Below the pieces are notes generated by a model. It had not been told where the DNA came from, searched no databases, and saw only the letters and a list, made by a program, of their open reading frames with translations. A program made the position numbers and the translations under genes. A stretch of 64,000 bases of DNA from Cyanophora paradoxa CCMP329. Its lineage: Eukaryota > Plantae > Glaucophyta. Shown here piece by piece: positions 24,290 through 64,000 of the stretch; within the stretch, counting starts at the first letter, position 1, and every line of letters begins with the position of its first letter. Location of the stretch: positions 27,887 to 91,886 of the forward strand of contig QPMI01000475.1 of the NCBI GenBank assembly GCA_004431415.1, given 5' to 3'.

Positions 24290-24388
24290 CGGCTTCGCCA
24301 CTTTCCCAGCGCTGGCAGCATCGATGGAGGGCTAGCCCCGAACCCCGAGACGCACAGTCAGCGAGCAACGTCGACGCGGCTCGTCGGT

Positions 24389-25556: not shown

Positions 25557-27420
25557 TCACAGCGCGAGCAGGCGGGGCGCCGGCGCCGCCGCGAATCTCC
25601 GGGGCGTGGCCGACGGAGCGGGGCCGGCGGGGCGCGGGGCCACGAAGGCGGCGGCGCGGGGCCCACGCGAGCTCCAGGGGGCGGAGGCGGAGGCGGAGGG
25701 CCCGGCGGAGGCGGCGCGGCGGGCCTCGGCCTCGCGGATGCGGCGGCGGCGGGCCTTCATGACGGGCCGGACGGCCTCGTAGACGGAGAAGAGGACGGCG
25801 GCCATGGGTCCCAGGTACCCGATGCGCGGCAGGATCCCCTTCGAGAGCGCGATCGGGCCCTCCTCCTTCACGATCCGCGCGAAGCAGTCCCCGATCCCCT
25901 GCGCCCGCCCCGCCCCGCCGCCGGCGTCAGCTTGGGACTTTAGCCCCGGCGCGCGCCGCGCTGCGCCCGCCCGCTCGCCTTGTACTTGTTCGGGTCGTCG
26001 GCGCGCTGCGTCATCAGCCGGGTCTTCACGACGTCCACGGGGGTCTGCGGGGCGCGCGTAGTGTCGGCATTGGGAGGAAGCCCTGCCGCGCGAGGGCGAG
26101 AGGGCCTCGCGCGTACCATCATCGCCGCGGCGAGGGCCCCAGAGACGCCTGGGCGGGCGGTCACGGGCCGGGGCGGGAGGGGGGGGGGGGGGGGGGGGGG
26201 GGGTACGCGGACCGCCGAGGGCGAGGTTTTCGGGCTTGGCGAGGGTGCGCCCCCCCACAAAGGCCTCGTACATCCCCTTGAACTGCTCGAAGAAGACGAA
26301 CGCCAGCGTGTTGTACGGCACTGGAAAAGAGGGGGGATGAGTCCGGGAGGGGTACGCGGGTCGGAGCCTGAGCCTACCGTCGCGCATGAACTGGGAGGCT
26401 GCGCCGACGTAGAGGCCCCGCGGGAAGCCGTCCGTCTTGATCAGGTCCGTCGCCACCGCCAACGCGTTGGGGTACAGGTCCGCCTGCCCCCAGTCGACGC
26501 GGGAACGGGGGGGGGGGGGGCGGAATGCATGTGTACCTGGACGCGCTGCTTGAGGATTTCTTGGGGTACGCGGAAGGTGAGGGCGCAGGTGGCGCCCACT
26601 GCGCCGGCCACGAGCTGAACGACTCCTCGGTTCGAAATGACGTCACCCAGCTGCGCCCCGGCTCGGGAGGAGGTACAGGGTACCGGGCGGGCCGGGGGTA
26701 CCTTGTCCTTGACGGTCTCGTAGGAAAGGAACTGCGCGGCGCCGGAGGGGACGGAGAGGACAACGCAAGGAATGATGCCTGGCGGCCGCGCTCAGGCGTG
26801 GGGCGGCGGCGAGGCGGGAGGGGCGGCGCCGCACCCTTCGCGAACGTGCCGAGCGACAGCGCGGTCTTGATCGTCTTCGCTTGCCGCCGGGTGCGGAGGA
26901 CGTCCATCGGGTGCAGCAGCGTCTGGGCAAGGCCGCGCCTGCGCCCGCCGCGAAGGGTCAGCCGCCGCCGCGGCGCAGCGCGCTAATCTGGCCCCGATAG
27001 ACTCGTTTCTTTCCGCTCTAGCGCGCGGCCGCAAGTCCCCGCCGCGAGCACTGATCGGGCTTGGGGGGCGCTCACGCAATTGAGCCGCAAATTACGTTGT
27101 CCGTGTGCGTTAGCTGCCGGAAAATCGTGCGCACTGTCAGATAAGCTGGAGCGCGCGCAGCGCGTGCTGGAGGAGCCTGGCGGATAGCTAGGCACGCCCC
27201 GCAGCCCGCGCCGATCGCGCGCGCAGCCCCGCGCCGGCTCATTGCATATGGGGCGCGCATGAAGTGAGCTAACTGTACCTGCACATCGTCGTCCGCGGCG
27301 GCGGGTGCGGGTGTCGGTGCTGGCGCCGCGGCGGGCTTGGCCCCCGCGGCCACGAACATCACTTGAACTCGGCCAGTATCGCCGAACTGCCGCTGCCGCC
27401 GCCTGGGAGCCATTTCCATC
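25557..27420 (-). CDS. Mitochondrial carrier family protein (SAM-carrier-like, multi-exon; start uncertain, possibly 27630)
   Basis: Three Px[DE]xx[KR] signatures (HPMDVLRTRRQ, VPQEILKQRVQ, TPVDVVKTRLM) and KGILPRIGYLGPMAAVLFSVYE. Confidence 0.85.
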
Positions 27421-27657
27421 GCCGACAAATCGATCGGAGGGGTACGCACAATCTCAAAGCCCAAAAGCAGACTAGCTGCTCTCGCCGCCCACCGCACTCT
27501 CTGGTGGGCCAGCAACAGGCGCGGTGACCTGCAGCAGCCTGCAATTCCTGGGACCTGCCCGCAGCTCCCAGCCCCCGGCACCCCGCGAGCCGTTCTCCTG
27601 GGCATCCAGGCAGCGGCCGCGTCCTCTCATTGAAGCTCGTCACGTAGCTTGCTAGAA

Positions 27658-38400: not shown

Positions 38401-40107
38401 CCTCCAGCCCATCTTCTCGGCCCCCGCCCGCCCGCCCCTTTCAATCACGCCCCCGCAGATCCGGCTGTGGCAGTCGATCTGCCTGCTCTCCCCCGCCGTC
38501 GCCTTAGACCGCGGCGCGCCCCCGCCCCGCCCGGCCCGCCCTCCCCTCGCCCTCGAGCCGGCCCTCACCCTCGCCCTCGCCCGCGCAGAGCTGGCGACGG
38601 AGGTGGAGGGGCGCGTCTGGCGCGTCCTCCTCGACCAGTTCAACCTCGCCTCCGTCCGCCAGGTCCGCCCAGGCCTTCCACGCCCCGCCCCCGCCCCGCC
38701 CCGCTCACTTTCCGCCAGTACATGGAGCTCGTGCTCGTGCGCCTCATGTGCATCTACCCGGACCGCATCCACGAGACCCTCGCCAAGTCCCCTCCCTCCC
38801 CCCTTTCCTCGCCTCCTATTCGTTTCGGTCCGGCCGACGCCGGGCGGCGCGCGGGGGCGCAGGCAGCTGGACAGCATGAACCACCGGCCGCAGAAGGCGC
38901 AGTCGCTGCTGCTCATCGCGACGCGCCTGCTCGGCTCCATGGCGCCCCGCCCCGCCGACCTCCGCCGCGTCCGCCGCCTTTCCCCCCCTTTCTTCTTTCC
39001 ACTTTTGATCGCGCGGGGCGGGCAGCATGCCTTCGTGCTGGTGCCGCGCCTCTCCCCCTACCTCGCCTCCCAGGTCCCCTCCTCCGCCCCCGTGTGGCTC
39101 TGCACCGAGCCGCGCGGGCAGAGCCACACGGTGCGGGCGCTGGCGGTGATCTGCCTCCGCCGCATCCTCGACGAGCTCCTCGCCGGCCACGCCCCCACCC
39201 GCCAGCCCCCGGCCCGCCCCGCCCCGCCCCGCCCCCTCCCTCCCGCCCTCCCTTACGCCCCCGGCAGGCCGAGGTGCCGGCGGGGGAGCTCGAGGCGATG
39301 GCCCCCGACCAGTGGTGGGGCGCCCTCGGCTGCCAGATCGCCCAGGCGCGCGTACCTCCCTCCGCTTCGCCCCCGCGCCCTCTGACGCCCCCTCCTCCGC
39401 CTCCGCCGCAGTGGGAGGGGCGGTTCCTCAGGGAGAACTCCGACCTGGTCAAGGTCTGGTCCAAGCAGGCGCGCCCCCGCCTCCTCACCGTTCCTTCTCG
39501 ATCCGCCTCTGAGCGAGCCCGTGGCCGGGGCGGCCTTCTCAGACGAAGTACTTCCTGGACGCGCTGCCGCCGGAGAAGGCGTGCGCGCTGGACGTGCTCA
39601 TCAACACGGCCGAGGGGACGGCCGTCGGCGCCGAGAAGGACGGGGAGGCGGGGGCGGGGGCGGGGGCGGGCCCCGTCGGCTCGGGCAACGTGGCCCCGGC
39701 CCCCGTCGAGATCCTCGCCTCCTTCCTCAAGGCTCGCGTACCCCCGCCCTCCTCTTTCTTCCCCCCTGTTCGATCCTCAGATCCGGGCGCAGCACGGGCT
39801 CTCGTTCGAGTACGCGGCCGAGCAGCCGCCGCCGACGCCCTCCACGCCCTCCACCCCGGCGGGGGCGGCGGCGGGGGCGGCGGAGGGGGAGGCGGAGTCT
39901 CCCGAGGCGGAGGCGGCGAACTTCCAGCGGAAGATCGTGCCGTGGAGCGAGATGGAGATCGGCATCGAGGCCGCCGCCTCCTCCAAGGTCGAGCAGGTCC
40001 GCCCCTCCTCCACGCCCCGGGCGCCTCGCCGGCTCACTCACCCTCCTTCCTCCCCCGCGCGGCAGGTCAACCGCCGGCGCCAGCAGGTGTGCCCCTCCCT
40101 CCCACCC

Positions 40108-40143
<36 letters not shown>

Positions 40144-41068
40144 ACCTCCCCGCAGATCATCGTGGTGGCGTCGCTGATCGACCGCGTGCCGAACCTCGCC
40201 GGCCTCGCCCGCACCTGCGAGGCCCGCCCCGCGCCCTCCCTCCCTTGCTCCGCCCCCCTCGAGCCCCGCCCGCGGCGCAGGTGTTCCTGGCGTCGCGGCT
40301 CGTCGTCCCCTCGCGCGCCCTCCTCGACGACGTCCTCTTCAAGCAGGCCCGCCCCGCCCCGCCCGCCCGCCCGCCCCGCCCAGGCTTCGGCTTAGGCTTC
40401 TGGGTGGACTCTTCTGTGTCTGACACGGCCGCGCGGCGCCGGCCGCCGGGCGCAGATCTCCGTCTCCGCGGACAAGTGGGTCCCCATCGACGAGTGCCCG
40501 CCCGAGGAGCTCGTCCCCTACCTCCGCGCGCGCCGCGCCGAGGGGTACAGCCTCCTCGGCCTCGAGCAGACCGCCAACAGCGCCTGCCTCTCCTCGTACC
40601 CCTTCCCCCCGCGCGCCGTCCTCGTCCTCGGTGCTTCCCCCGTACCCCTGCCGGGCGGGACTGTAACCCCACCGTGCAAGGCTGAACCCCCGACAGGGCG
40701 CGAGAAAGAGGGAATACCGGCGGACCTCATCCAGGTATGCCGCTGTACCCCTCCCTTCCCCTCTCGCTCCCTCCCTCTCTTCCCCTTACCGGGGTACGCC
40801 CGCAGCTGCTGGACGCGTGCATCGAGATCCCGCAGCTGGGCGTCATCCGCTCGCTCAACGTGCACGTCTCCGGCGCCATCATGATCTGGTACCCCCCGCG
40901 CCCCAAGCAATCCCCGCCGCCGCCCCCCGCGCCTGATGGAACTCGCGATCGGGCAGGGAGTACACGCGGCAGCAGCGCGTCAAGGCTGCTGCTGCTGCCG
41001 CCGCCGCCGCCGCCGCCGCTGCGGCACTGCCCCCGACCTCGGGTTCGAGCTCTGTTCCCGCGAGATGA
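32425..41068 (+). CDS. TARBP1: tRNA (guanosine-18-2'-O)-methyltransferase TARBP1/Trm3 (many short introns)
   Basis: C-terminal SpoU domain ([33 protein letters not shown]|[33 protein letters not shown]) preceded by NFQRKIVPW and a long helical region. Start uncertain. Confidence 0.88.
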
Positions 41069-42098: not shown

Positions 42099-43567
42099 CC
42101 CTCCCTCCCCCCCTCGAGCTCCGGGTCCTCGGCCTCTGCCCCGCTTCCGAGTGTTGGCGAGACTGTCCTCTTTTCGGTCTCCCCGTCATTCCGGCTCCCT
42201 GCTCCCCCTTCGGCGCCTCGGGTCCCATATGCGGGTCCTATCCCGCTTCCTGGCGCTCGTGAGATTCGCCGCCGGCGCCCTCGTCGGGCCCTTGCGCCCT
42301 CGAGCTCGTCTCTCTCTGCGCCGCCCATGGCCATGACCTCCGTGTCATCTGATCCGGCGCCACCCGACCTTTCTCCAGCTTCGCTGCCCTCTCTTCGGCG
42401 CCGGCAGCGATCCCCGTCACCTGCTCGCGGCCCTTCCCCTGCCTCCGACCCTTCCTCGGCCCCTCCTCGCCTAGGCCTCTTCCGTCTCGTCGGCCCCCGC
42501 CGCATTCCCGTCGGCGGATCTCTCGATCGACCCTGGACTCTCCGCCTGCCACTGTCTGCGGGGTACCTCCGCCGCCGTGTTCGGCGCCGGCTGTCAGTAC
42601 TTTGCTCGGTAGCTCCCCGTCGTGGCTCCTCGGGGGCCTCTTCGTCGTCGTCGTTCGCTGGGTTCCGGCTCCGGTCAGATTTCTCGCCGGGCTTACCTTC
42701 TCCTGGCTCTGCTCCTGGGCCCTCAGCTCCGGGACCGGCTTCCCCGATCTCCTCCCGGACTCGTGGTCGTACCCGTCGCCGGCTTGCCGAGCCTGCGGCT
42801 CCTTCTACTTCCCCCCGGCGGTTTGCCGGGCCGGACCCTCCGGCCTTTGTTCTTGATACCGGACTGCCGCCTTTGCCTTCGTCTTCTGCTTCGCTGGTCG
42901 CGATCGTATCCCGCCGGCGCCGGCGTACTTCTTCGTCTTCTAGTTTAGTTCGGTCTGGTTCGGATTCTGATCGTAGTGTTGATGCTAGAGTTAGTTTCAA
43001 TACTAGCTATAGTCCTCGTGCTCGACCTGTTGTTCGCCGTCGTTTGCAGTTCGATTGCCCGCCTCGACCCTGGCCGGCTTTAGTGATTCCTTTGACTGTC
43101 CTTTTGCCTGCTCTTGATCCGCCTGCTCCGCCTCCTGTGTCCTCCTCGACCTCGTGCCGTAGCTCTGCCCTTTCGCATCGTCCTGCTTCGCCTCCGCCTC
43201 CATGTCGTCTTGTTGTTCCTCTTACTTGTCTTCTTCCTGTTATTTATCTTTCTCAATTTTGTCCCCCGCTTCTTAGTGATGTAATTCCTTCTGACTCAGT
43301 GATATTGATGGTATCTCTAGCTCTGGCTCTTCTTCGTGTCAGTTATCCTCTGTCCCTAGATCTGCTCGATTTATCGTCTCTTCTCGCTATCGATCTGTCT
43401 CGAGCTCTGTGTCTTTCCTTTTTTATTGTCGATTTTGGCTCTTTGTCTTATCTTTCTTCGTGCTCTTGTCTTAGTTATTTTGCTTTTTTGTCTTTATGCC
43501 CCCTGGGCAGCCCCCGCAGTGCTGGTGTCTAGAGACTGTGGCCGGTAATTCACCAAAAAAAAAAAAA
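42099..43567 (+). mobile_element. Non-autonomous or 5'-truncated poly(A) retroposon with 8-bp target-site duplication
   Basis: TACCTTTG at 42091-42098 and 43568-43575. Ends ...GGCCGGTAATTCACC-poly(A). Strongly C/T-rich, with no RT motif recognised. Confidence 0.85.
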
Positions 43568-44094
43568 TACCTTTGTTTTAAATCAACAAATTGCTTATCC
43601 ACTTGTACCCCAACTTCATTCGCAGCCTGCGGACTGACGTAAAAACTGCTGTCTGTAGAACCCCCGCGCCGCCCTTGCGCATGCTCGCCGGTGCGCAGTG
43701 CGCACTGCGGAGTCTGCGGCACACGGTATGCGCGCGCGCGAGGCGTACACTAGTACTACTATAGCAGCAACAGAAGCAACGTTGCTACGCCGCTACGGTT
43801 AACAGCAGGCTGTCAGCAGCAGCTGCTGCTGCGCGCGCGCCTCCAGGCCCTGAGGCTACGCCGATCCGCGGGGTCAGGGTTCAGGACTCCGGGACTCCGG
43901 GAGAGCTTGCTCATCCATCCCATCAGCGACCGCAGCATTTGAGCAGCCGCCGATCATCGTTACAACGGAGTTACTCGAGCTCGCGTCGGGTTCCCATTTT
44001 GGCTGCGCTCCGTGCGCGGCATCAGCAGCTGCAGGCGCCGCTGGGCCTGAGGGTCCGCAGCAGAGGCGAGTGAGAGACGCTGCCGGCGGCTGGC

Positions 44095-48803: not shown

Positions 48804-49223
48804 CCCCCGCCCGGGGGGCCCTTGAGCTTCTTTCTTGTCATTCTTGTTATTATCGACAGCGGTCTCCCCCCTAGGCTTCTTTATTTGCTTTTCGATGTGT
48901 AGCTGTACATGTGGATGCCTCACCGAGCCTCCTGTTTTCTCCGAGGCCTGTGCAAGTTACAGTGCAACTGCACTTTTGTGATACTATGATACCCTGCTTT
49001 TCATTACCCTGATCTACTGAGCTATTCGAGTTTAAATACTTTATATGTGCTGCTGTCACAACATACCTAATTATTATGATATATATCTTGCTTCTTCGTG
49101 CTCGTAGTTTATTGAATAGAAAGTATGCGGACTGTATGAGTCCGACGGTCTGTATCATCGGTTTGTACATGTGTGACGATGTGTCACACTGTGACATGAT
49201 GTGTGCCGCGCCTTCGTACAGTA

Positions 49224-49437
49224 CTGTAGAAGGCGGAAAATTGCCGAGGCGAAAAATTGCCGAATTCGTCCCAAACCGAAATTGCCGAGTCGATAAATTG
49301 CCGAGGACAGACGTCCGCTCTATGGCGGCCCGAAAATCCCTACCCCCAGCAACATTGCCGAGTCATTAAATTGCCGAATTCGGTGTCTCGGCAATTTACG
49401 GCAATTTAAAGACCCGGCAATTTTCCGCCTCCTACAG
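49224..49437. mobile_element. MITE with TA duplication and AATTGCCG subterminal repeats
   Basis: TA-CTGTAGAAGGCGGAAAATTGCCG ... CGGCAATTTTCCGCCTCCTACAG-TA. Confidence 0.8.
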
Positions 49438-49710
49438 TACTCTCTTTGTTTTGAGTAACTTTTGACTTCGCCAGCGCTACGCAGGCTAACGCAGCGGCGC
49501 AGCCTACCGTAGTACGCTTCCCGCCATGGCCAGCGCCCAAATTCGAAGCTCAGCGGCTCCCGGAGTCCCGAATCCCGAATCCCGATCGCGCCGCGGCGAG
49601 TCCCCGCCGACGAAAGTTCCGGACTCCGGAGCTGCTGGCAGCCTGCCGCTCCCGGGACATGATATACTGGAGTAACTGGACCCATTACTGAGTCATACTG
49701 ACCAGTACTA

Positions 49711-51170
49711 CTGTAGGACGTCTTAAATTGCCGTCGTGAAAAATTGCCGAATTCGCCCAAAACGGAATTGCCGTGGTAATAAATTGCCGAATCCAAAAAT
49801 TTTGTTTGTTGGGGAAGGACCCCCTTCCCCTTCCCCCACTTGGGGGTGTTCGGGTGCCCACCCTAGGCCAAAATGAAATGTCCCGACCTCCCAAAACTCA
49901 GGTTTTCTCGCCTTTTGCTTGCAAGGCATGTCCCTAGGAGTCCGGAAACGTGTTCCGGGACATTCGGGCCCCGTCCGGTGGGCCAGGAATGGGCAATAAC
50001 ATGTTTTCGAAAAATGCGGTCTAGCGCCTCACCAGGTGGCGGTATATCTGCCGAACCAAGTGCGCCTAAATGCGCGTAATGAGCCCGTCGATTCATGTCA
50101 TACATGCCGAGACCGAAGGAGCACAGGGTGGCCCGCTAGGCCGCCTCAAGTACCTTTGTACTTGCTAGTCCGAGACTCGATCTATCGAAACTCCTGAGAG
50201 TTTCGGCCGATTGCTGGGTACACCGCTTGAACGCTGAGGTCCGCTAGGTGCCACGGTGGACAAGGAACAGCAGCTTCGTTTGTGCAACAGAGCAGCCGGC
50301 GCCGCCCCCGCCCGCGCCCCCGTCGCCGGCCCCGGCGGCGCGGCTCCTCCCGCTCCTGGAGCGCGACCTATCCGCCATCGCACGCTTCCCCGCGCTCCAG
50401 GCGATGCCATGATGGCGGCGGTGGTCTAGCGGCGGCACTCGGGCCGAGACAGCTAGCTTCGATTCATTGGCCTCCGAGACTCACCCCCCCTCTCTTCTTT
50501 CCTTTCTCTTCACCCAGCCCACAAGAGCCCGGCCCCCTCCCCCCGCCTCCCTCCTCCTCCTCCGGATCCTCCTCCTTCCCCCCCCCCCCCCCCCCCCCCA
50601 AATTTCCCACTGGGCCACCTCTCCCCCCGTTCACGCCGTGACGCAGCGCCAAGGTCTATGTTCCACATGCTCCTGTAAGGCTAGGATCAGACAACTATAG
50701 CTAGTTAGCACGTCGCCCCCCTAGGCCTTCCAATTGGAAGTCTCAGAGCAAGCCTCGCTTCCAATTGGGTGCCTGTTCAAAGTCTACTTCCTAATTGCAA
50801 CCTGCTCAGAACCTGCTCAGAACTTAGAGGTCCTTCCCCTCCAACAGGGCCGCTGCGACAGCAGTGTTCCTGTTCCGTTCATATGGGGCAGAAAATTAGC
50901 CCCCCTCCCCCCCCCCCCCCCCCCCCCCCCCCGAGGTACAAACTAGCTAAGGCTGACTATGACTGCGCATGCGAGCTCGAGGCGCCGGCCGCGGCGGCCT
51001 CCGCACGTCGTCGCTCATGGCGAGGTTCAAACTGTGCCGCGAACGTCGACGGCTGCGCCGAGGGACGGGGGGGGGGGACGAGCGACATTGCCGTCCCTTA
51101 AAATTGCCGAATTCGGCCTCTCGGCAATTTACGGCAAAATAAAACGACGGCTAAAAAAGCCGTCCTACAG
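49711..51170. mobile_element. 1.46-kb non-autonomous DNA transposon (same AATTGCCG family)
   Basis: TA-CTGTAGGACG ... CGTCCTACAG-TA with multiple AATTGCCG motifs at both ends. Confidence 0.75.
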
Positions 51171-51297
51171 TAGTTTCTGGTACAGACCGTGACTGTACAG
51201 AAATGCATGATACTGTGGGAGGCGGAATTTCGCCAGAGTCTATTAATTGCCGTAATTTACAAATTGCCGAAACGCCGAATTCGAATTCGGCAATTTA

Positions 51298-51588
51298 TTT
51301 TTTTTTGGTAAATTACCGGCCACAGTCTCTAGACACCAGCACTGCGGGGGCTGCCCAGGGGGCATAAAGACAAAAAAGCAAAATAACTAAGACAAGAGCA
51401 CGAAGAAAGATAAGACAAAGAGCCAAAATCGACAATAAAAAAGAAAAGACACGGAGCTCGAGACAGATCGAGAAGAGACGAGAAATCGAGCAGATCTAGG
51501 GACAGAGGATGACTGACACGAAGAAGAGCCAGAGCTAGAGATACCATCAATATCGGAAGGAATTACATCACTAAGAAGCGGAGGACAA
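51298..51588 (-). mobile_element. 5'-truncated copy of the poly(A) retroposon, inserted into an AATTGCCG MITE
   Basis: Reverse complement of ~43258-43567. Flanked by AATTCGGCAATTTA (51284-51297) and AATTTGGCAATTTA (51588-51601). A further 3' end lies at ~51775-51858 (+). Confidence 0.8.
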
Positions 51589-52754
51589 ATTTGGCAATTT
51601 AACGACTCGGCGTACGTATATATATAAAGATAAATTGTCGAATTCGCCTAAACTATATATATATATATATATTCGATGTACATGTCCTGCGAAAAGACTA
51701 GAATTAGGTCTTGTTGCTTTTAGTGCTCTTGCCTTAATTAGTTTTCTTATTTCAGTCGTTCTCTTTGTTGAATATGCCCCCTGGGCAGCCCCCGCAGTAC
51801 TAGTGCAGCAGTAGTGCTGGTGTCTAGAGACTGTGGCCGGTAATTCACCAAAAAAAATAGAATTAGATCGATATCTAGATTCTAGAACCTTGAATTTTTT
51901 CGATCGATTCAATGTCGAGTTCGAAGTCTTCGATCGGCATTGCCATTGGCCGAAGGGCTTCAAATTCGTCGACGTGTTAGCTTCGCCGATCGCGACGAAT
52001 TCGAAGGTCGGACGTCGACGTCGACGTTCGAATTCGGTTTTAATTTGCGATTGGCCAAGGGGGTTTCGTCGGACGAACGTCAGACGAACGTTAAAATGCA
52101 TTTACTGCAAACGTACGAATATCCGCCATCGTTTAATTTCGACTATTTTCGCCAGACCCGTGCGTTGGCGAATATTTGACGCTGGCGAATTGAGCTTTTG
52201 TATGGAGAGAGGGGTACTAGCCGCTGATTCGTCTATGGCGAGGGTCTCGGGGTGGCGAAATCAAGACGCTGGCGGACTAATTTTCGCCAGGATTTTCGGG
52301 TTTTGGCGAAATAAAGTGCTGGCGGATATAGGCTGCAGCCTGCAGCACTACCAGTAGTAGCTGCACTACGTATACCGTCCAACTTGCCAAGTTGGCTTTG
52401 AGTGGGCATTGTCAAGTTGAATCTCTCAAAGCTGATCCAGGCCCTCCGGATCCGGATCCGCATATGCATGCGCAGCCGTTGAGCTTGCAAAGGAGGACTC
52501 CGGGAGGCGGAGAGAGCCGCAAGGCTGGCGGCGAGGTTGGGCGGCAAGGTCGTGCCGCCGCGGCCGTCTTTGTCCCATGCATATGGCCAGGACTCCAGGA
52601 GGGGGCCCCGGGGCCCTCAGGGGTGCAGGCCTAGGAGGCTAGGACGACGACGAGGAGGAGGATGAGCCCGAGGAGGAGGAAGATGACGAGTACTACGGTA
52701 GGACGTAGCTGAGCCCTTTGGGGGCCTTGCCAAGTTGCTGCGCCCTCTCTCGTA

Positions 52755-52940
52755 CCGTCGGGCACTAAATTACCGTAGTACCGCGGCATAAATTACCGCG
52801 CGTTTTAAAACCCGGCCCGCCATAGGCCCATAGAGCAAAATACCGCGGTACGTACCAAATTACCGCGTTTTTACAAATTCTCGGCGCGGTAATTTGGTAC
52901 CGCGGTAATTAAGTGGGCGCGGTATTTATGTGTTCTACGG
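52755..52940. mobile_element. MITE (TACCGT...ACGGTA ends, AATTACCGCG repeats)
   Basis: Imperfect terminal inverted repeats. Related degenerate copy at ~17863-18062. Confidence 0.5.
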
Positions 52941-52979
52941 TAGCCGGCGCGCTGTTGTGTAGCTATAGGCCTAGGAGAG

Positions 52980-53130
52980 ATAGGAAACTTCCTATGGAAA
53001 CTATGGAAACTTCCTATGGAAACTATGGCAACCGTTGAACCTTGGAAACTTCCTATGGAACCTATGGAAACTATGGAAACTTCCTATGGAAACTATGGCA
53101 GATAGGAAACTTCCTATGGAAACTTCCTAT
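52980..53130. repeat. Minisatellite GGAAACTTCCTATGGAAACTAT
   Basis: Tandem imperfect copies visible directly. Confidence 0.85.
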
Positions 53131-53200
53131 CAGTTTCAACTTGGCAACCGTTGAACCACCGAACAGCGCTGGCTGCAGGGCCGGTGCAGCCTGGCATGCG

Positions 53201-53967
53201 CAGGGGCGCGGTCCGGCGTCCGAGGCAGAGGCAGAGACGTAATTCTGATTGGTTCGTCAAGTCTGCCTGCAGAATTTAACTTGAAAATACTATGATAGGC
53301 TCTGGACCGCCGCGCGCGGGCCGGTACCGGTACCGGCCTGCCTCGATCTGCCTCGACTTGAAACCCCGGACCGGCACGGCGGCACCTGCCTTGCCAGTGC
53401 CTTGCCAGGCTTGCCTTGCCTTTTTCTGCCTCGGCTGCCTACCGGTAGGTCGCGCCGGCGCCGAGGCCCCCCCCTAGCAGACCGAGGCAGACTTTTTTTC
53501 CGACCTGCAGCCAACGCATCGCGCCTACGGCGTAGCTGATGCGCGCTCGCTAGCGCTCCGTAAACGCGACGGCAAAGTGATCAGCATGCTTCAGCCGACC
53601 TGTGCGCGTTGAGCTCGTCGCCCAGCTCGGCCGGGCAGCCGACATCGCCAGCTTGCGAACTTTCTGGAACTTCGGAAGCTCGGCGCCGCGCGCCCGGCGG
53701 CCCAGACGCGTGCAGATGCTGCCAGGAACCTAGAGTAGCACTATGCACGCGTGCGCAATGCGCCGCAGCCCGCAGGACGCTGGCGGCGCTTTCTGGCCGA
53801 CTTCGCGAAGCTTCTTGCCTTGCCTAGGTTGACGACCGGACCGACCCAGGCAAGGCAGAATTAGGCAGAGGCAGAATTAACTTGAAATTTCACGTATCCG
53901 GGGCAGAGGCAGACTTGAAATAGGCAGAAAGGCAGCAGGCAGCCGGACGGCCCGGACCGCGCCCCAG
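53201..53967. mobile_element. Possible hAT-like non-autonomous element with GGCAGA subterminal repeats
   Basis: CAGGGGCGCGGTCCGG ... CCGGACCGCGCCCCAG inverted ends. No clear TSD. Confidence 0.45.
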
Positions 53968-53986
53968 GCTCCACAGCTGCAAGTTA

Positions 53987-54245
53987 CTGTAGTATTGCTT
54001 TTTTAGCCGATGTTTTAAGTTGCCGTATATTGCCGAGAGGCCGCCGGGCCGACTTCGGCAACTTTAAGCCACGGCAATTTTGAGGGGGTATACGGTACCT
54101 TGGGCTAAACGGCAGCTTTTGTATGGCGCCATACTATGATAGAGGATCCCGGAAATCCAGAGTTTCGGCAATTTATCGCCACGGCAATTCCGGTTTTGGT
54201 CGAATTCGGCAATTTAACTACGCGGCAATTTAAGCATTCCTACAG
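53987..54245. mobile_element. MITE of the AATTGCCG family (opposite orientation to 49711..51170)
   Basis: TA-CTGTAG ... CCTACAG-TA. Ends match the reverse complement of the 49711..51170 ends. Confidence 0.7.
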
Positions 54246-54806
54246 TAAAGCCTGCAAGTTGCTGCAACTTGCCTGCAGCTGCGAGCTGCGTGACAGCCTC
54301 TGACAGGCACTGACACTGTCTGACAGCCTGTGACAGGACACGCTCATGATCATGATCATATCACACATACCGGTATATAGGACACGCTCATGATCATAAT
54401 CATCGGATCATCGGATCAGCCCGGATTCAGCCGACGGGGCCTGGGCTCGCAGGAGTCGCAGCTCCAAAGAGGCGCCGGGTCTCGACTCTCGAGACAAAGC
54501 TAAGAGGCGCAGATATAGCTAGCCTGAGACTCTGAGATCTAGAGAAACGTCTGCGCATACGTACGAGCACAAAGCTGCAGCGGTGAGCACTTACACCGCA
54601 TACGTACTGCGGCAGTGGGAGTATTGCCAAGTTGGCAGGATCCCCAGTCCTGATCGTTAGCTCCTTGCAATCGGGTGCGTATGCTTTCCGAAGTTCGAAT
54701 TCGCGCGAGACTCCGACTTCTCCTTATTATATAATCAGCATTAGCGATAGCGCGCTTCTTACACGTGCGCCTTCATCATCTACAGGAGCACGAGATGATC
54801 GCAACT

Positions 54807-57541
54807 ATGGACCAGGATCCGGAGATGACATCGATGGAGCTGGCTCCGTCGGCGCCGTGCGACGCCCTCGAGGCGATGCCCGGCACCTTGATCGAGAAGG
54901 TAATCATAAACGATACGTTAACGTTATAATCAACGTTATAGGCTAGATCTGCTGCACTTGCTGCTCGTGTTCTGCGCGCAGCTGATCATGATGCCGCCAA
55001 CCCTCAGGGGACGTACGAGCTCCCATTCTCGTACGTATATATGCGCCGCGGCGCGTTTCTTGCGCACTAGAGGCATCTGTGGTGTATATATGTGTATACG
55101 TACGCGGTAGTGACTGTCGACGTCACAGGGAGGTGGGAAAGATCCGGTCCTCGGGCTCAGAGGAGGTGTGTCCATGCGCGCTTCCATGAAACCGTTGAAC
55201 GCTTCGGATCTAGACAGCCGCCTGCGTCTTCTATAGCTAATAACGCCCTGGCCGCTCCTGAACTAACCGGCCCCCGCATCTGCAGTACCACGGCTCTGGC
55301 GCGTACAAGCTCCCCGCGACCTTGACTCAAACTTACACGTGCGTACCGTAGTACTACGGTATATATATATAGAGACGACCGATTGCAACTGCATAGCCAG
55401 ACTTTGAGACGACCGATTGCAACTGCATATGACCGTCGGACCTTACCTATCCGGACCCTAGGCCTGATCCCTTATACGTATCCCACATGCATGTGCTGCA
55501 CATGTGCAGCTAGGTCTTCGTATTCGAAATCGCGCCTTTGCGTATATGAAAGATCATGATTTGCGTCAACGCTGCGCGTCGACGTGCGAATGAGCATGCA
55601 TATGCTTGATGCGTGCGACACGCGTCGGATCCGGAGCGCAGGTACTCCGACCAGTTCAAGGAGGGGAGGACCGTCGAGGAAATCGACTCGGTGACGGAGA
55701 CTGGTGCGTTCGCTAAACCGAGCTCGCCTTATATTCGATTCGCGCGAGCGCTCATGATCATGACCATGCATGTGATCATGAACTTGAACAATCGTCGACG
55801 TCCGCAGGTAACTTCGTGCTCCGTCAGATCGTGAGACCCCAGAAAGTCTTGTACGGAGAGTTCAAGAAAATTGCAGCCGGGTGCGATGCGCAGCCACGCG
55901 CACATGAACTTCAAATATAATTATAGATTCTCGCATCTAGCTAGCCGCTGAGCCGTGATCATGAATCACAAGAGCGAATCTTTCTGCTTTCTCTTAATGG
56001 GCTCTTACCCGTCATGTCAAATGCGTGTAGGTCGCCGGAGGAGAACCAGTCGCCCGGTGCGTCATCTGCGCATGCTGATCACAAGCTGTCGCAGTGTATG
56101 CGCGTCTGATCTCGATGCGGCAGCCCCGGACGCGGTGCAGTGGACGCGGGACCCCGCCTCCGAATCCTATGTGGGAGCGGGAATCCCCCAGCAAGGCCCT
56201 CGCATTCCGGATGGGCCTCGCGTGCCGGTGGAAGGCCCCGCGGGCCAGTGGGCGCCGATCGCGCCGCCCCTCGTCAAAGCCAGCAACGCTTCCATCAGCG
56301 TCGCCGAGCCGGTCCAGGCGTGCGGCGACAAGCCCTGGTGAACATCTCCAGGCAGTGCCCTGTCCGGGCTTCCTAAAGCTTCATCGTTTAAGGCGATTGC
56401 GCATGCGCAGCTTCCAGTCGCATCTGGCATCACTCGCGGTGGAGAGCGGGGCGCCGATGGTGCATGTAGGGGCAGCAGACAGCACTGTCCAAGTGGAGCT
56501 GGCTGCCAATAACATCCTGCTCCAAGCTCTTGAACTTAATGTGCGCCGCAGCCTGCGCATTCCCAGCTTGCGATTCCGCCGATTTCATGCGTAAAACGTC
56601 CGACGCAAGCAGGAGTCGTCTGACGCTCCGAAGAAAGAGCTGCTTCTCTCCGGGGACGCGCTCGTCAAGGTGTGATTCTATTCGCATTGGTGTGATTCTT
56701 ATGTGCGTGAGGGAGGCTGAGAAGCTCGCAGGACGTCGGCCTGATCCCCTACACACTCCATTACAACTTGTCCAAGAATTCGCATGAGTCACGCGTGCTC
56801 GAGGAGAAAGGTGATTCATGCTTAGAGAGTATTTTATTATTCTTAACTATAGATCTCAGACGGGCCAGCCGTTAGAGCCCCCTTTAACGCGCGATAGCTT
56901 CCTGTCGAAATCATTCCGTAATAAGTGCCTGAACGAGTTTGCTGCTCGCGATTGCAGGAACGTTCTCCGAAACACAGGTGTGCGGATGCGGCCTCGATCG
57001 CAAGCCTCTTTCAGCATCGGCGTCCCGGCCCGGGCCCGCGCGTTTGATTTTCTTTTCTTCGACCTCGCAGTCTGTCGAGGTCAACGGCCAAGGCACCTAC
57101 ACGTACTCGCACGGCGGCCTCTACGTCGGCGATTACGCCAAGCCCGGTCTCGAGGCGAGCAAACGACTTCACTGAGTCAGATAAAATCAAACATGCGGTC
57201 AGACCGTCGGACGATCAGATGTGCTAACCGGACGGCGAGCTCAGGTCGGAACGTACGAGATCTATGCCCGCGACGTCAAGTCCTCAGCTGTCGAAACGCC
57301 GGTGCACTCATCGGAAAATGTGGACCCTAACCAGGTACGCTCACGCTCGCAACTGCAAACTTGTAGTTTAGGGTCTTCCGATATCCAGCTGGATATCGCT
57401 CCTCGAAAGCTCGTCGCTGATGCAGTGCATATCCATGCTCTGCACGCAGGAGCAACTGCCGGTGGCACTCTCAATCCGGCTGGGGACCCCATCATCACCC
57501 CGGATGGCGAGGCCACGGGCGACCGCGTGCGCATGCGCTGA
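54807..57541 (+). CDS. Uncharacterised multi-exon host gene (boundaries uncertain)
   Basis: Coding-like exons bounded by GT..AG (SDQFKEGRTVEEIDSVTETG; QWTRDPASESYVGAG; SVEVNGQGTYTYSHGGLYVGDYAKP; VGTYEIYARDVK). Confidence 0.4.
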
Positions 57542-58168
57542 TCTGTCTGATCTCTCTCAGCTGAAATGCTGATGGACGGACCGGGTACCGGCACTATGTC
57601 ACTCGCGCAGGTCCCGCGTCGGAAGTTCTGGAGGCGTCGGACAGCACCGACCTGGAGCCGCGGCAGACAATCTCTGGGTCCGCGATCCGCTTTGCCATCC
57701 GATGTCCCTGCTTGACGCTACACTGTCCACGCTGCCGGCAGGGATCTGAAGCTCATTCCCGAGTTCAAATCGGACTCGATTCCAGGGCCCAAGTCATGCC
57801 CACGGTTCGCTTACGCGCTTCTCGCTTCGCTAAATTGAAGTGCTACAAGAAGAACATGCATATGCTTTCTCACGGCAAACTTCGTTTGTCTGTGTCATCG
57901 CAGGGAGAGTGCCTGGACGTCCAGGCCCCCATCCACAACGCTACGGACTTTCTCAAAACCGCCTGCGAGTGCGTTTCGCATACTTTAAACCTCACGCACA
58001 AATATATATATATAGCATACATTTGCACATATACGATTTATAAACCAGCGTCGAGGTTCGAATTCAGGGCCAGACGTTGAGATCGCGCGCGCGTGCGGTT
58101 TCGCAGCAGCGAGTCGGCCACCTGCGAAGTGCCCGTGGGCTTGAAGTGCCCGCTTGCGAACGCACAGC

Positions 58169-59343
58169 ACACATAGTAAAATGCGGAGTTTTAACCCTCG
58201 GCTTATCTTAATTGATTTTGTTGATATATCTCGTATATTCTATTTCAATCAATCGATAATCTGTGTATATCTTATCGAATATTCATTTATTTCGATTATT
58301 TTGTATTCTTTTCGATATTTTATCGTAAATTTCTCTTATTTTCCGATTAGTCTTACTGAGTCTATCGATAATCTGTATATATTTCCGAATAATATAACTG
58401 AATCTCAATTAGATCTTGCCTCTGGTTAAAACTCCGCATTTTACTATGTGTGATTGGTCTAAAAGTTAATTGATTTAATCGATATTATATTCATGTACTT
58501 TCTCGATTAAATTTAATTAAATTTAATTCATTTAATCGGAAATATATCGCTTAACTCGATTAAGATCCATATTAGATTCATTTGTTTAATAAAACAAATC
58601 GATCTCTTATTGAATCCAATCGTAATTATACATGAAACTTATATGTTTTTATCATGTTTTAATGATTCTAAGGGGGGACCCTTAGGATTTTTGAAATAAT
58701 TGGGTGTGACAGGTGTGACAGGTCTATCCCAAACTTTTGATAGTTCATTTTTATGTTATAGAAAGTTTGGGATAGACCTGTCACACCTGTCACACAAACC
58801 ATATTCAGTAAGGATCTCTTTTAATGTTAAAATTTCAGTGTTAGTTGGTGTAGTTGATTCACAAAATGCATCCTGTCACACCTGTCACACAAACCATATT
58901 CAGTAAGGATCTCTTTTATAATGAAAACTCAGTAACAATAAGTAAGAAGTTTATCTATGTAATTCTACTTGAATAAACAAATGAAATAATCGAGTGTGAC
59001 AGGTGTGACAGGTCCATCCCAAACTTTTGAGAGTTCATTTTTATGCTATAGAAAAGTTTGGGATAGACCTGTCACACCTGTCACAAACCATATTCAGTAA
59101 GGACCTCATATATTGGTAAAATCTCAGTGTTAGTTGGTGTAGTTGATTCAAAAAATGCATTTATACTCTGATTCATTGTTATTTCCTGTGAAATTTGAGT
59201 CAACTCAACCCACTTAGTCAACCCTTGCATTGAATTCGTAACAAAATCCATATACTTTTACTACTTTTACGATTAATATGAGTCAACCTTGAGTCCACTT
59301 AAATATAAATATAATATAATAGGGGGAATCTAGGGCAGATGCT
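58169..59343. repeat. Family-2 terminal inverted repeat (~1.18 kb)
   Basis: Reverse complement of 13304..14481. Terminal cassette 58169-58451 is bounded by a 28-bp perfect inverted repeat. Confidence 0.95.
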
Positions 59344-59548
59344 TACTAAATGCAGTGTTAGATTGATGGGATCATAGATGGGATCACAGTTATCGAAGCA
59401 ATATAATATAGTTGAATATTCGATATCATAAGTTGATCGAAACGATAAGTATATGGTTATAAATCGCGATTTTTGAGTTATAATCGAATTTAATCGAAAA
59501 AACCGCGTTTTTTTTTTACTTTTCAAGTTTCACGGCGAACGAAGTAAA

Positions 59549-59622
59549 GGTTCCCGAGCGGATTTGAACCGCGTAGTTTTGAGTCAGAAATCAAGCGCTC
59601 TATTCTCTGAGCCAAAAACGGC
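59549..59622 (-). ncRNA. tRNA-like / Pol III promoter-containing unit
   Basis: Minus strand GCCGTTTTTGGCTCAGAGAATAGAGCGCTTGATTTCTGACTCAAAACTACGCGGTTCAAATCCGCTCGGGAACC. D-arm GCTC/GAGC, T-arm GCGG-TTCAAAT-CCGC, imperfect anticodon arm, no acceptor stem. Confidence 0.5.
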
Positions 59623-59869
59623 TTACCACCAAGTCGACTCTGGGCTAGTGTTTCACCAAGTCTACTATGGCAAGTGACTTTTGCATCTTCAAACTGTTAT
59701 ATCTCATCACCAGATCATCAAAACGCAACGTTCTGCATATCGCTGTGAAGCGCTTGATAAGATCTACAAGACTATGTGTATATCATGTGCATATATGTAT
59801 ATCAGTCATACATATATTTGGAAAAAACGAGTTTTTGCCTAGCAAACTAGCTAGTTTTGGTCCTTTCTC

Positions 59870-61225
59870 TTAGTGTTCTCTGAGGTTTAGGGGCTGTATA
59901 TGACTCCTTAGTAGTCTGAAAGTCATTATACCATCTCTGGCTATTAACCTCAGAAAGTTTCTGTGTCCTGCTATAGTGAGCTTTTTGAGTTCCCTGTTAA
60001 CTTTCCCAGCCTTCTCCTTTCTAGCCTCTATCAAAGGCTTATCTGGGACTTCATTAGCAGCTTCTATGCCTTCTCTCCTTATAGCAGCATCAGCCCTGGC
60101 TTCTCTTTAGCTTGCTCCAAGGCATCCACTGTAGGGGTTTCTAGATATTCAACTGCATTCACAGGCAACAGCTCATGGAAAGCAAACCTGTTTTCTATGA
60201 TCTCACCAGTGGGACTCCTTAGCTTAAACTTAAAGCCTTCCCTACTATCAACAGTGTAAACCATCCTAGACAATTGTTACCCTGTTTAGCAAAGGGTTCT
60301 TCTCAACTTTCACTCTAACAAACATGCCAGGCTGCATGGTATCAAGGTAAGCTATTGATTTCTTGAATCTTTCATCTTCTAATCCCACTATATACCTATA
60401 ATGCTCCTCTGTAGTTTCGCCTGGCTTCATCTTAGTAGCTGAGTGAACTGTATTATTGTAATTATACTCAATATCACCTAACACATCAAAGAATCTAGCT
60501 GTGTTATTAGCTATGCAATAGTTTGTGATCAGTCTCTTAATCTGCTTGTTAAAGGCTTCAATTCGACCTTGGCTTCTATGGTCAGCAGTTCCACTCACTT
60601 GGTGTTCTATGAATTTACTAGATAAATACTCCTGGAATATTCGATTTTGGAATTCACTCCCAGCATCTGATTGAACTTTTACTATGGGTCTTGCCACTCT
60701 CATTTCAAGCTGTTTAAATGCAGCTAATGTAGTGAGAGCTGATTTATCCCTTATAGGTATGATATACCCAGTTCTCAGTGTAGATTCCATTGCAGTCATA
60801 AAGGTATCATAGCCATTGTTTTGTTTCTTATAAGCTGGGAAAAAGAGCAAATCAATCACATAGGTATCAAGGGGTTGCCTAATTGGGACCATGGAATCTC
60901 TCTTCCTAGATATAGCAGTGCATTGATCTGAACAACTTCTTGTTTTTTATAGAACTCTTGCAACTGCTTATAGGATTCATCAGGTAACTCAGCCCTCATA
61001 GCTTGAAGCCCTTTGTAACCAGTTCTCACATCATAGAATCTCTTGGCAATCTTGCTGGTTTCTTTCACTGCAATAGCAACTGGATCTCTACTGGGACAAG
61101 CTCTTTCATCTCTGACTTTTTACAATTCGAGATTCTCCCTTTTCCTCCTTGGGAACTGTGATAGGCAGTAGGTTACCTTGTAGTTGCTCAGTGGTTCTCC
61201 TAACTATTCTTCCAGTTGCTGGCAT
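59870..61225 (-). pseudogene. Retroviral-like (rve) DDE integrase of Polinton type, frameshifted in this assembly
   Basis: YVIDLLFF, KVQSDAGSEFQN, QGRIEAFNKQIK, YNNTVHSATKMKP. Pieces at 60856..61068, 60266..60892 and 60079..60273. Confidence 0.88.
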
Positions 61226-61228
61226 CTC

Positions 61229-64000
61229 TTAATTAAAAGGAACAGAATTAATACCATCTGGTAAGATGTATCTCTTTGCATCAAAGCAGTTTAGGGCAAC
61301 CCTTCTACTCACAGTGTCTATTATGTGTGATCTGCCCTTCTTTTCTGCTTTGCAGTCACAGTCTTGCTGATACCTGCAAATAAACACTGTTTAAAATCAT
61401 TAAATTGGAGTTCCTCAGTTGAAGTCCCAGAGAGCTTACTCCTCTCAATCTCAGCAGTTCTGAAACTGTAAACTTTAGCTCTCAGACCCACATACTCCAA
61501 TATAGCAGAGCCAGGCATTTCATTTTTGTATTACCTGGGTCATTCTGGAATCACCTCCAAGTCTAATGCATAGGATATATCTCTATATCTTTTTGTAGGG
61601 TCTTAGATTCGATATATAGACAAAGGAGTCAGTATCATGGAATAGTAACTTTGCTTTTGTCCATTGGGACCTTACAGTATCATAGAAGAACTTGTAGTTA
61701 TGCAGTTTGGCTGCATCCAGAACATAAGCCCAATAGCAACTGGCTTATCTAGCTTCACATGCTTTGTGTAAAACTCAAAGGCAACTGCTTTTTCGTTTAT
61801 GGGACTTGTTGATTTCACCAATGGGGAGGCTGCATATTTCATAAACAGTTTCTCACTGTTTGCATCTTAACCACAGATCTACCTCTGCAAGATTCAATGC
61901 ATTCCCATAGATTGAGTTATTCATGAGTTTATAGAAATCAGCCTCGAATTATTCACTGCTTTCCTTCTCATCTCAGTATTCAGCTCAATGTAGGGTTTCA
62001 TTACAGGAGCCACAGTAAATGATAGGACCCTGTGAACCTTCTTTAGTTTCACCCCTTTGTCCAACAGATACTGTAGAAGAGGCTCAGAAATCACATAGTT
62101 GGTCACAGAACAAAGTTTGCAGTTAGCTTAGGGGTCTTATCAAGCTCTTCTCCTGAGAGATCTAATAGGCTCTTTTGATATTGTGATAATTCTGCATATT
62201 CTACTATTTTCTTGTTAATAATTAGGGGAAATCACTGTGGTCTAGATATAGCCTAATTGGGTAATCCAGATCAACTTCCAGGAAACTGGATCTGTTATCT
62301 TGTGGGTTGAATTCGGTCTCCCATCTAAAATCACCAACTGGATTGGCTGACTCAAACAGTAGCCATACAAGTTGTTAGCATCAAACAGCATTATATGGGA
62401 GTTCTCACCATCAGCCTCAGCATACCTACAAGGCATTGTTGCAAAGCCACCCCTGATTCCCCTCTCAACAAATTCGTATTGCTCTACATCACTTATAAGC
62501 TCTATTTTTGCCTTGGTGTCCTAAGCATAGCATCCCAAGATAACCCAGGTGCAGATACATAATGAACTGGGTCCAATCCATATACTGAGTGTGAAAGCCT
62601 TCTGAAAGCCTGGAATTTGCTCATTACTCATCTACATCAGCAGCCCCAAAGTCCATAAAATTACTTGCATCAATGAACTTGTAAAGACCCCATTGCAATG
62701 AAAGGTATTGATCAAAGTTTTTCGAAAGGATTTCGATTCGCTTTTTATCACCATGCCTGCTATTTTTCTGAAAATGAATGTCCCACAGTCATCCATTTGG
62801 TCAACAACCACTGCTACTTTTGTTTGCTTTGAGATTCTCCTATGGAGATTGCAGTTTCTGCATGCAGGTGCAATGTAATTACCTGTGTGGTGATCATGAT
62901 CCCTGCATTTGAAGTTTTCCTTGGTGAACCTCTCACTGCAAAGGTAACAGTGTTTGGTAGCTCTGTAAATAGCCTTTTTGCTCATCTGTGAGTTCATTCA
63001 TGGGAATATTGGTGAACAGGAAATCGATTAGCTCTCTTGCTTTGGACTCCAAGCATTCAAACAGACCTCCCATTGGATCCTGACCCTCAAATCGAAACTC
63101 CTGAACATCTGCCCCAGTGACTATTCTAATGTTGACTGCTGAGACTTCCCTCTTGGATTTCGATGCATCAATGGGGATGCTTCTATGTTCAATCTTGCAG
63201 TAAACCACAACAGGAAGCCAGACAGTTTTCTGAGGTTTTTCAGTCCAAACTCTATTGTGGTGTCAGGCTTAGGGGTGATTCCCTTTGAGAGTCTCCAATC
63301 AATGCATCTGTTTGAGTCCACATGAGCAGTCAGTTTAGCCTCAGACCTGATCGAGATAAGCATGTATCACAGTAGTGTAACTTTTGATCCTTGGTTTTTA
63401 TCAAGGGCAACTCTGAGAAGTCTTGAAAGGGACATGATAGTAATATAGTGACCATTCCCTTCATCATCATGAATGAGCATTAGATTAATCTTTTGCTTTC
63501 TGCCTGGGTTGCTGGATTGATGTAGGGGATATATAACATCTCCATCCATTCCAAATATGTTGTATGCTGATGCCTGCATTTTGAGATTCGAATTTATCAA
63601 TGATTTCAGCATCACAAGGAACAGGGAATGGATATTGTCGAAATTGAGAGCCAAAGGATTGTATGTGGTTGGTGAGTATTTCCATTTGCGATATTGTGTA
63701 AGCTCACTTCTCTTGTGGGAATTTACATCTTTCCTATGGATCCATGCCAAAATGGCATTTTCAAAGCAAGAATCATCAATATTTCGAATATTCACTGTGG
63801 CTCTCTTGGCTGCAATTGATTCTGGTGTTTTAACATAGCAGCCACCAGTTGGGGCATAACTCATAATAGCAACTCTTAGCATTTCGATTCTCTCCAATCG
63901 ATAGCTATCAACAACATTCATCTGTTCCTGACACATTTGGGCTGCTTTATTCAGCTCAGTTCGAATATTTCTCGATTTGGTTAATACAAAATAATCGCTG
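61229..64000 (-). pseudogene. polB: Protein-primed family B DNA polymerase with endonuclease-VII-like Zn insert, frameshifted in this assembly
   Basis: FDANNLYGY (motif A), KLMNNSIYG (B), FHDTDSF (C), YVGLRAKVYS, FDAKRYILPDGINSVPF*, CRDHDHHTGNYIAPACRNCNL, and N-terminal VNIRNIDDSCF. Confidence 0.92.

Follow-up and report, generated by a model that had tools for sequence, protein, structure and literature searches.

Context-dependent loss of CpG in a putative Polinton-like element integrated in the glaucophyte Cyanophora paradoxa

Introduction

How might a virus that resides in a chromosome shed nearly all of its CpG dinucleotides while its lineage keeps its genes, and why should the few that survive lie beside a T or an A? 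The question is raised by a stretch of 64,000 nucleotides from Cyanophora paradoxa CCMP329 (contig QPMI01000475.1, positions 27,887 to 91,886), hereafter the window, which holds two families of virus-like elements. Family 1 occupies positions 1-11381, and family 2 is present as two copies (11382-14481 and 58169-64000) that face outward around 43.7 kb of intron-rich host DNA with 72% GC, the family-2 element itself being AT-rich (40% GC). From its putative polymerase pieces, its rve integrase and its terminal inverted repeats (TIRs) of 1.18 kb, family 2 appears to be an integrated, multi-copy element of the Polinton or Polinton-like virus (PLV) type, an assignment made from one end per copy, any capsid, packaging ATPase and protease genes lying beyond the window.

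Survival of CpG in family 2 follows the flanking bases

The part of the right-hand copy at 59870-64000 contains 25 CpG where 165 are expected (observed/expected, O/E, 0.15), and 186 GpC. A preliminary description, made by eye from the sequence, had put the survivors at about two dozen, each preceded by T or followed by A and most of them TCGA, and the counts bear this out: all 25 are TCG or CGA, 18 are TCGA and none is VCGB, where V and B denote a site without T before it and without A after it (binomial P = 4e-7, given the local TC/GA frequency). Across 2000 dinucleotide-preserving shuffles of the same region, VCGB averaged 11.3 with a minimum of 4, and TCGA averaged 2.5 with a maximum of 8. 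The left-hand copy (11382-13070) had been said to obey the same rule with a single GCGC exception; 11 of its 13 CpG are indeed TCG or CGA, and the exceptions number two, GCGC at 11901 and CCGT at 13063. The orthologous family-1 block (7220-9809) is as CpG-rich as described, with 149 CpG, an O/E of 1.36 and every context represented, but this does not hold for the rest of family 1, where the fibre-like genes (1-7200) have an O/E of 0.70 and do not spare TCGA. The GC content of family 1 equals that of family 2, yet family 1 has no context bias.

When the family-2 genes are pooled and each CpG site is counted once, TCGA is retained at 1.10 of expectation (23 against 20.8), sites with one T or A flank at 0.13 (0.134; 13 against 96.7) and sites with neither at 0.018 (2 against 112.1). 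Retention changes about 8-fold with each T/A flank and does so multiplicatively, the two VCGB observed lying close to the 1.8 predicted by a multiplicative model as opposed to the 8.0 of an additive per-strand model (P = 0.013). Sites with one flank are retained 7-fold better than VCGB, and 13 of the 15 survivors that are not TCGA have one T/A flank, where a share of 0.46 is expected (P = 0.0015). The preference reaches one base further out, with A or T at position -2 in 51 of 59 surviving TCG, counted strand-wise, as opposed to 429 of the 694 remaining TC (P = 1e-4), a bias that is absent from family 1 (P = 0.45). Among family-2 hexamers, WTCGAW occurs 16 times against 9.9 expected, while both STCGAS (e.g. 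CTCGAG; 3.2 expected) and WACGTW (5.0 expected) are missing.

The loss of CpG in family 2 is independent of codon usage, codon position and amino-acid content. Codons ACG and GCG do not occur, CCG occurs once and TCG five times, arginine is encoded by AGR in 39 of 47 cases, and CpG across codon junctions is reduced to 9 against 42.6 expected. Shuffling synonymous codons over 1250 codons predicts 79.2 CG (29 observed), 28.2 VCGB (1), 36.6 one-flank sites (12) and 14.2 TCGA (16).

The TIR is governed by a similar rule. At the right end of the left-hand copy (13304-14481), CpG is retained chiefly as TCGA, which is found 10 times against 3.3 expected (O/E 3.0), with VCGB at 2 against 11.6 (0.17). 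The termini of both families had been described as rich in TCGA. This stands for the family-2 TIR, but in family 1 a tandem repeat of 63 bp holds most of the terminal excess (1.9), and an excess of 1.45 is seen in intergenic DNA of the host as well, so the family-1 figure is no evidence of sparing.

Fate of the lost sites and age of the loss

Lost CpG is balanced almost one to one by the products of C-to-T decay, as had been proposed: the right-hand copy lacks 140 CpG and has a surplus of 143 TpG+CpA, and the corresponding figures for the left-hand copy are 50 and 57. In alignments of orthologues, family 2 retains 4 of 73 family-1 CpG sites and 22 of 52 family-1 GpC sites.

The two TIRs (13304-14481 and 58169-59343), which are arms of two different copies in inverted orientation, are 99.15% identical over 1179 bp, and the loss of CpG must thus be older than both insertions in the window. 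The family-1 copy that ends at 11381 interrupts a family-2 gene and leaves its C-terminal 38 codons, of which a 3' remnant on the forward strand (11382-11499) matches the C-terminus of the family-1 gene at 7220-8062 in 15 of 30 residues (E 1e-7). Family 1 is therefore nested in family 2, as the preliminary description had it, and since it cuts a family-2 gene this copy is the later insertion; the broader claim that family 2 is a long-term resident and family 1 a newer arrival goes further than the nesting, which dates two copies only.

Short-read contigs from three runs give the right-hand copy a summed depth of about 10,000-30,000, whereas the neighbouring bin of host DNA stands at 279 in one of the runs. 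Such depth does not translate into a copy number; taken with the hundreds of variant contigs, it nonetheless indicates that family 2 is a multi-copy family. These contigs are mostly 95-100% identical to the right-hand copy, and over 6.2 kb each run differs from it at 14-19 A>G and 20-26 T>C positions. Of 12 single-base insertions listed (51 further), 11 fall within 59870-64000, and each of these coincides with a frame switch or lies no more than about 20 bp from one; in the single-copy flank, 370 bp contain 8 gaps and 1-2 substitutions. Because the short-read bases coincide with the breaks and the single-copy flank is gap-rich, the frame breaks of the right-hand copy are probably errors of the long-read consensus. 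The family-2 lineage has most likely retained its genes, as had been suggested, its frame breaks matching single bases in the short-read contigs. Decay in place of dead copies was ruled out as a cause by the 99.2% identity of the TIRs and by the short-read bases that mend the breaks.

Avoided palindromes

CpG is not the only word that is scarce in these elements. A scan of all 4-mers and of gapped palindromes found gaps strong enough to survive multiple testing. Family 1 has no GTAC (30.1 expected), GGCC (17.5), CTAG (18.8) or CTNNAG (23.4), and family 2 has one GTAC against 14.9 expected, no GGCC against 12.5 and 7 GCAC/GTGC against 34.4; in host DNA, GTAC reaches 182 against 66 expected. The gaps persist when codons are shuffled within open reading frames (ORFs), with none observed in family 1 against 22.7 (GTAC), 14.1 (CTAG), 27.2 (CTNNAG) and 7.2 (GGCC) expected (0 of 1000 shuffles each), and none in family 2 against 10.0 for GTAC and 3.6 for GGCC (20 of 1000 shuffles for the latter). 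Family 2 avoids CTAG, AGCT, CTNNAG and TGNCA less strongly than family 1 does (P = 0.0003, 0.001, 0.002 and 0.006, respectively). GCAC/GTGC, TGNCA and GGNCC are partly depleted in the viral regions (1-11381; 11382-14481, 58169-64000) and not in host DNA, and in host intergenic DNA (15400-18900, 49200-57500) all 16 four-base palindromes are enriched, the opposite of what is seen in the viruses.

Judged from these word counts, the gaps in both families look like restriction-site avoidance that has been relaxed in family 2, although the contrast would follow just as readily if each family had a helper of its own. No report of restriction-site avoidance in virophages or PLVs was found in the literature searched, which leaves most subscription journals outside.

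A host methyltransferase as the possible cause

On balance we lean towards loss of family-2 CpG through deamination of 5-methylcytosine (5mC) over the history of the lineage, under a host methyltransferase that would disfavour a 5' T and a 3' A. Family-2 CpG would have been methylated during many rounds of residence in the chromosomes of a methylating host and then converted to TpG or CpA by deamination, 5mC being the presumed cause. The enzyme, perhaps the host DNMT1 or DNMT3, is predicted to act poorly with T before the C or A after the G and would spare TCGA in A/T flanks (WTCGAW); the two flanks would act jointly if, as we suppose, a symmetric mark lasts only where both strands are well methylated. 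Purifying selection may meanwhile have preserved proteins and frames, with arginine shifted to AGR. For family 1, the exposure to host methylation would have been shorter and that to selection of the restriction type longer, the latter likely imposed by a helper giant virus.

There is precedent for several of these steps (here and below, cited statements refer to those parts of each source that were available). Methylation in C. paradoxa is found in CpG only (32%), DNMT1 and DNMT3 are both present, and the methylated sequences include repeats and genes of viral origin (PMC12344493). The flank bias of DNMT1 reaches almost 100-fold (PMC7381644), CpGpA is disfavoured by DNMT3A (PMC7797059), and in vertebrate cells CTCGAG is the least methylated hexamer (PMC13082072).

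Several observations weigh against a methylating host enzyme. In source data for mouse DNMT1 in vitro, TTCGAA, ATCGAT, ATCGAA and TTCGAT all fall in the favoured (>1) bin (PMC7381644). Because DNMT1 favours WTCGAW in vitro, and because STCGAS is missing from family 2, the vertebrate ranking of hexamers does not transfer to this element; it fails in Arabidopsis too. The excess of products is not biased by context, TTGA/TCAA standing at 1.28 against 1.21-1.39 in the other classes. In the orthologue alignment, changes of CG to TG or CA (28) are no more numerous than single transversions (28), and the GpC control gives the same ratio (11 and 11). Among the 18 variants checked of 40 listed (188 further), a single one affects a CpG of family 2, and it lies in a TCGA site (61611). 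Pieces of host TIR transposons in the window retain CpG (TCGA 1.88, one flank 1.05, VCGB 0.85). The 470 bp of non-coding family-2 DNA adjoining the TIR (59400-59869) hold 24 CpG (O/E 1.51) and retain 11 VCGB, for which the deamination model lacks an explanation. Lastly, avoidance of the restriction type reveals further sequence-specific forces at work on these viruses.

Some further observations concern the same sites. The flanks of lost CpG may have drifted since the loss. None of five TIR substitutions falls at CpG, family-2 CpGs being few by now. The gradient from TCGA to VCGB in host transposons runs in the same direction as in family 2, but it is weak and confounded by the palindrome excess of host intergenic DNA. 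The stretch at 59400-59869 resembles a CpG island, with all contexts present, and is found at this end of family 2 only; short-read depth in the bin 59456-59662 is about 8-fold below that of its neighbours, and the CpG-rich stretch may vary among copies.

A wider proposal, which we offer tentatively, reads the two families as sequence clocks that run in opposite directions. Family 2 would record the flank specificity of a CpG methyltransferase of glaucophytes that passes over WTCGAW, as no DNMT measured so far does, and would have begun to regain restriction sites. Family 1 would keep its CpG while nucleases from a putative giant virus of glaucophytes still purge it of GTAC, GGCC, CTAG and CTNNAG.

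Alternative explanations

It is possible, if rather doubtful, that the methylating enzyme was not that of the present host. It would then have come from a virus, its gene lying in a helper giant virus or in the middle of the element, or from an earlier host, and would have marked CpG with an identical flank preference while the virus replicated lytically, deamination following. The age of the loss, which precedes the present copies, and the undepleted host transposons beside the element both agree with such an origin, as do the palindrome gaps of viral restriction-modification (R-M) type in both families and the many 5mC enzymes with 2-4-bp targets that chloroviruses encode (PMC7019647). Family 1, however, has the same gaps at GTAC and GGCC, plausibly from a similar helper, and yet retains its CpG. 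No methyltransferase was found among the element ORFs scanned in the window, the middle of both elements lying beyond it, and it is the host lineage that has a CpG-only methylome directed at viral DNA (PMC12344493).

Selection in place of mutation seems unlikely. Here family 2 would have purged either sites that enable host silencing or sites that are cut, the enzyme being one that nicks or restricts at VCG/CGB and would act on both strands at VCGB, on one at TCGB and on none at TCGA. Chloroviruses do encode nicking enzymes with degenerate 3-bp sites (PMC7019647), and the pattern of sites that are absent when read on both strands and rare when read on one also fits GTAC (0-1) and GCAC/GTGC (7 against 34; 24 against 48). 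The element also shows neither a context-specific excess of products nor an excess of transitions above the GpC control. On the other hand, the gain of TpG+CpA almost equals the loss of CpG, a strict recognition site would not yield the graded preference at -2/+2, and 11 VCGB remain in 59400-59869. No nuclease reading VCG/CGB was found, and to our knowledge none is known.

The preliminary description had also raised a modification specific to TCGA that would block a context-blind CpG methylase; N6-methyladenine (6mA) of the TaqI kind, or host 6mA at ApT, could be such a shield. That TCGA alone stands at an O/E of about 1, and that giant viruses methylate CTCGAG (bioRxiv 2019.12.21.884833), would suit it, but we consider it very improbable, and the TCGA-specific form has to be given up: the survivors with a single flank are retained far better than VCGB, as given above, and STCGAS is missing. 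Host 6mA at ApT fares no better: surviving WTCG shows no enrichment of ApT on its 5' side (36 of 50 against 285 of 429, P = 0.53), and WATW is the word least methylated by AMT1 (PMC12695648).

That base composition, codon usage or the assembly makes the pattern is hardly credible, for all the AT-richness of the element and the many single-base gaps in the assembly here: composition was ruled out by the dinucleotide shuffles (0 of 2000) and by family 1, codon usage by the synonymous shuffles (0 of 1000), and artefact by the short-read contigs, in which A>G and T>C places fall far below the 140 missing CpG. Plain AT-richness as the rule of sparing was ruled out by the missing WACGTW. The shuffles and the family-1 control agree with the preliminary description that retention of TCG does not come from base composition alone, which supports a flank-dependent enzyme.

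Genes and termini of the two families

The putative family-2 polymerase lies in pieces on the reverse strand (61232-64000). Look-alikes in the Atlas score 0.96-0.97, and PF03175 on 28% of one cluster provides a lead; motifs seen by eye in the pieces are presumably those of polymerase B. A PF02945 endonuclease VII domain lies within the same region (E 4.7e-5). Single pieces had no match to the Pfam polymerase, one piece searched against the PDB had none, and a homologue search with the N-terminal piece returned nothing. Beside it, also on the reverse strand, is the rve integrase gene (59850-61228), with its core at 60269-60946 and its flanking parts in other frames; it matches PF00665 (E 6-7e-5, under the Pfam cut-off) and an IS481-type model (E 1.7e-12), is 35% identical to protein P0001, and gave one match in a homologue search.

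The left-hand family-2 copy carries orthologues, at 46-74% identity, of the family-1 gene block on the forward strand (7220-9809), whose intact ORFs comprise two paralogous 280-aa genes, a zinc-finger gene and a gene resembling S-adenosylmethionine (AdoMet, SAM) decarboxylase. All three family-2 orthologues are on the forward strand. The counterpart of the 281-aa family-1 gene (11523-12353) is split into two frames in the assembly, its halves being 74% and 46% identical and both matching full-length P0010; a homologue search with the 281-aa gene gave five matches, P0010 representing a third family that is 53-60% identical to both and known as protein only. The small zinc-finger gene (12376-12648) is the orthologue of 8949-9221, with 66% amino-acid identity and a weak PF14311 match. 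The AdoMet decarboxylase-like gene (12672-13070) matches PF02675 (E 2.8e-11) and, under the cut-off, TIGR03330 (E 1.4e-11), its family-1 copy (9408-9809) matches PF02675 with E 4.8e-12, and the two families' copies are 55-57% identical. Both proteins have an ESH motif, which we take to be the self-cleavage motif. From its sequence, the protein could lower SAM or feed polyamine synthesis; since both families encode it, it is no cause of their difference in CpG. An AdoMet decarboxylase was not found together with a PLV or virophage in the literature searched.

Upstream in family 1, on the forward strand, are fibre-like genes with phage-tail repeats (1-7170), with PHROG tail-fibre matches up to E 5e-11 and a weak match to PF12789; three large genes at 3-7170 are built of shared modules and 12-residue repeats of the HTHTK type. 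The family-1 terminal region (9850-11381) has 63-bp tandem repeats (10236-11010, with ATCGATTG), a 96-bp direct/inverted repeat (9867-10212) and a terminal hairpin (11275-11381), and it ends in TATGTGT as family 2 does. The TIR at the left end of the right-hand copy (58169-59343) ends in ACACATA, so that TATGTGT/ACACATA termini are common to both families, and its terminal ~30 bp recur inverted about 240 bp inside. Both families have such an inverted inner copy, at ~80 bp in one (11275-11381) and ~240 bp in the other (58168-58452), possibly a fold-back at the genome end.

Neither the metagenome contigs nor the viral contigs searched contained DNA relatives of the two families; the one viral hit, L001, is a chance match of 18 residues in a phage-like contig that does not match the window. 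None of nine window ORFs was present in the protein collection searched, and no RNA data set was listed as containing the stretch, an outcome that has no bearing on expression.

The host DNA between the copies carries kinase, mitochondrial carrier, zinc-finger and methyltransferase genes. The variable C-terminal part of the MAK-type kinase gave 5 matches among 863 candidates, the best being 49% identical over the full query and clustering with a protein of Gloeochaete wittrockiana, which makes a glaucophyte host likely; GC content, introns and the published PLVs suggest C. paradoxa in particular. A gene at 36000-41000, RNA methyltransferase-like by eye, has many short introns, several of them apparently with GC instead of GT donors. 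Non-autonomous TIR elements, many with TACTGTAG ends and partly nested, lie at 49222-49450, 49709-51172, 51215-51560, 53985-54247 and 43280-43570.

Significance and comparison with known systems

If a host methyltransferase is responsible, an endogenous virus keeps its genes while losing the sites by which its host marks it. As enzymatic methyl sequencing (EM-seq) and nanopore 5mC/6mA data exist for Cyanophora (PMC12344493, PMC12695648), the predicted trough at these hexamers can be checked at once. The palindrome gaps, for their part, suggest a giant-virus helper that carries restriction enzymes. Should the two clocks proposed above be real, word counts alone would date residence, predict the specificity of the host enzyme and list the restriction sites of the helper.

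Polintons and PLVs with pPolB and an rve integrase have been reported in C. paradoxa itself (PMC8502044, PMC12220804, PMC10120064), and they resemble family 2 and family 1 in being AT-rich inserts in a GC-rich protist, with long TIRs, a polymerase (putative in family 2) beside the rve integrase, fibres with phage-tail repeats and many copies. Unlike here, the term 'CpG' is absent from the main texts of those reports, and the AdoMet decarboxylase gene and the nesting of one virus in another were not found in the parts available. Viral insertions in Cyanophora, Acanthamoeba and Amoebidium likewise carry CpG-only 5mC, on repeats and virus-derived genes, and such 5mC would be the likely mutagen of family 2 (PMC12344493); that work differs in concerning giant-virus relics, with no TCG/CGA context or Polinton in the text available and no analysis of flanks in the text of its supplement.

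The flank bias of DNMT1-UHRF1 and DNMT3A (PMC13082072, PMC7381644, PMC7797059) is alike in that two bases on each side matter, that a TCGA hexamer comes last in vertebrate cells and that DNMT3A disfavours CpGpA. The vertebrate effect is, however, additive with its minimum at CTCGAG, whereas that of family 2 is multiplicative, far steeper in its outcome in the sequence and centred on WTCGAW. Papillomaviruses are also DNA viruses with tetramer-dependent loss of CpG, but there TCGA/TCGT or ACGT is depleted and the loss is ascribed to TLR9 (PMC9040848), while family 2 spares TCGA and its host is a protist.

Chloroviruses package 2-4-bp cutters and nickases (PMC7019647), and the 4-bp cutters and nickases of chlorovirus and giant-virus R-M systems could select against GTAC, GGCC, CTAG and CTNNAG in a dependent virus (PMC7019647, bioRxiv 2019.12.21.884833). 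The enzymes are known in those systems, whereas the elements of the window show the palindrome gaps alone and their helper is putative; one virophage methylome was unmethylated and did not support a role for R-M (bioRxiv 2019.12.21.884833). Flank-graded CpG depletion that spares TCGA was not reported in the literature searched, with the limit given above. Depletion of CpG from methylated viral DNA is established, and what appears to be new here is its clean, 60-fold flank-graded form that spares WTCGAW, together with the palindrome gaps in both families.

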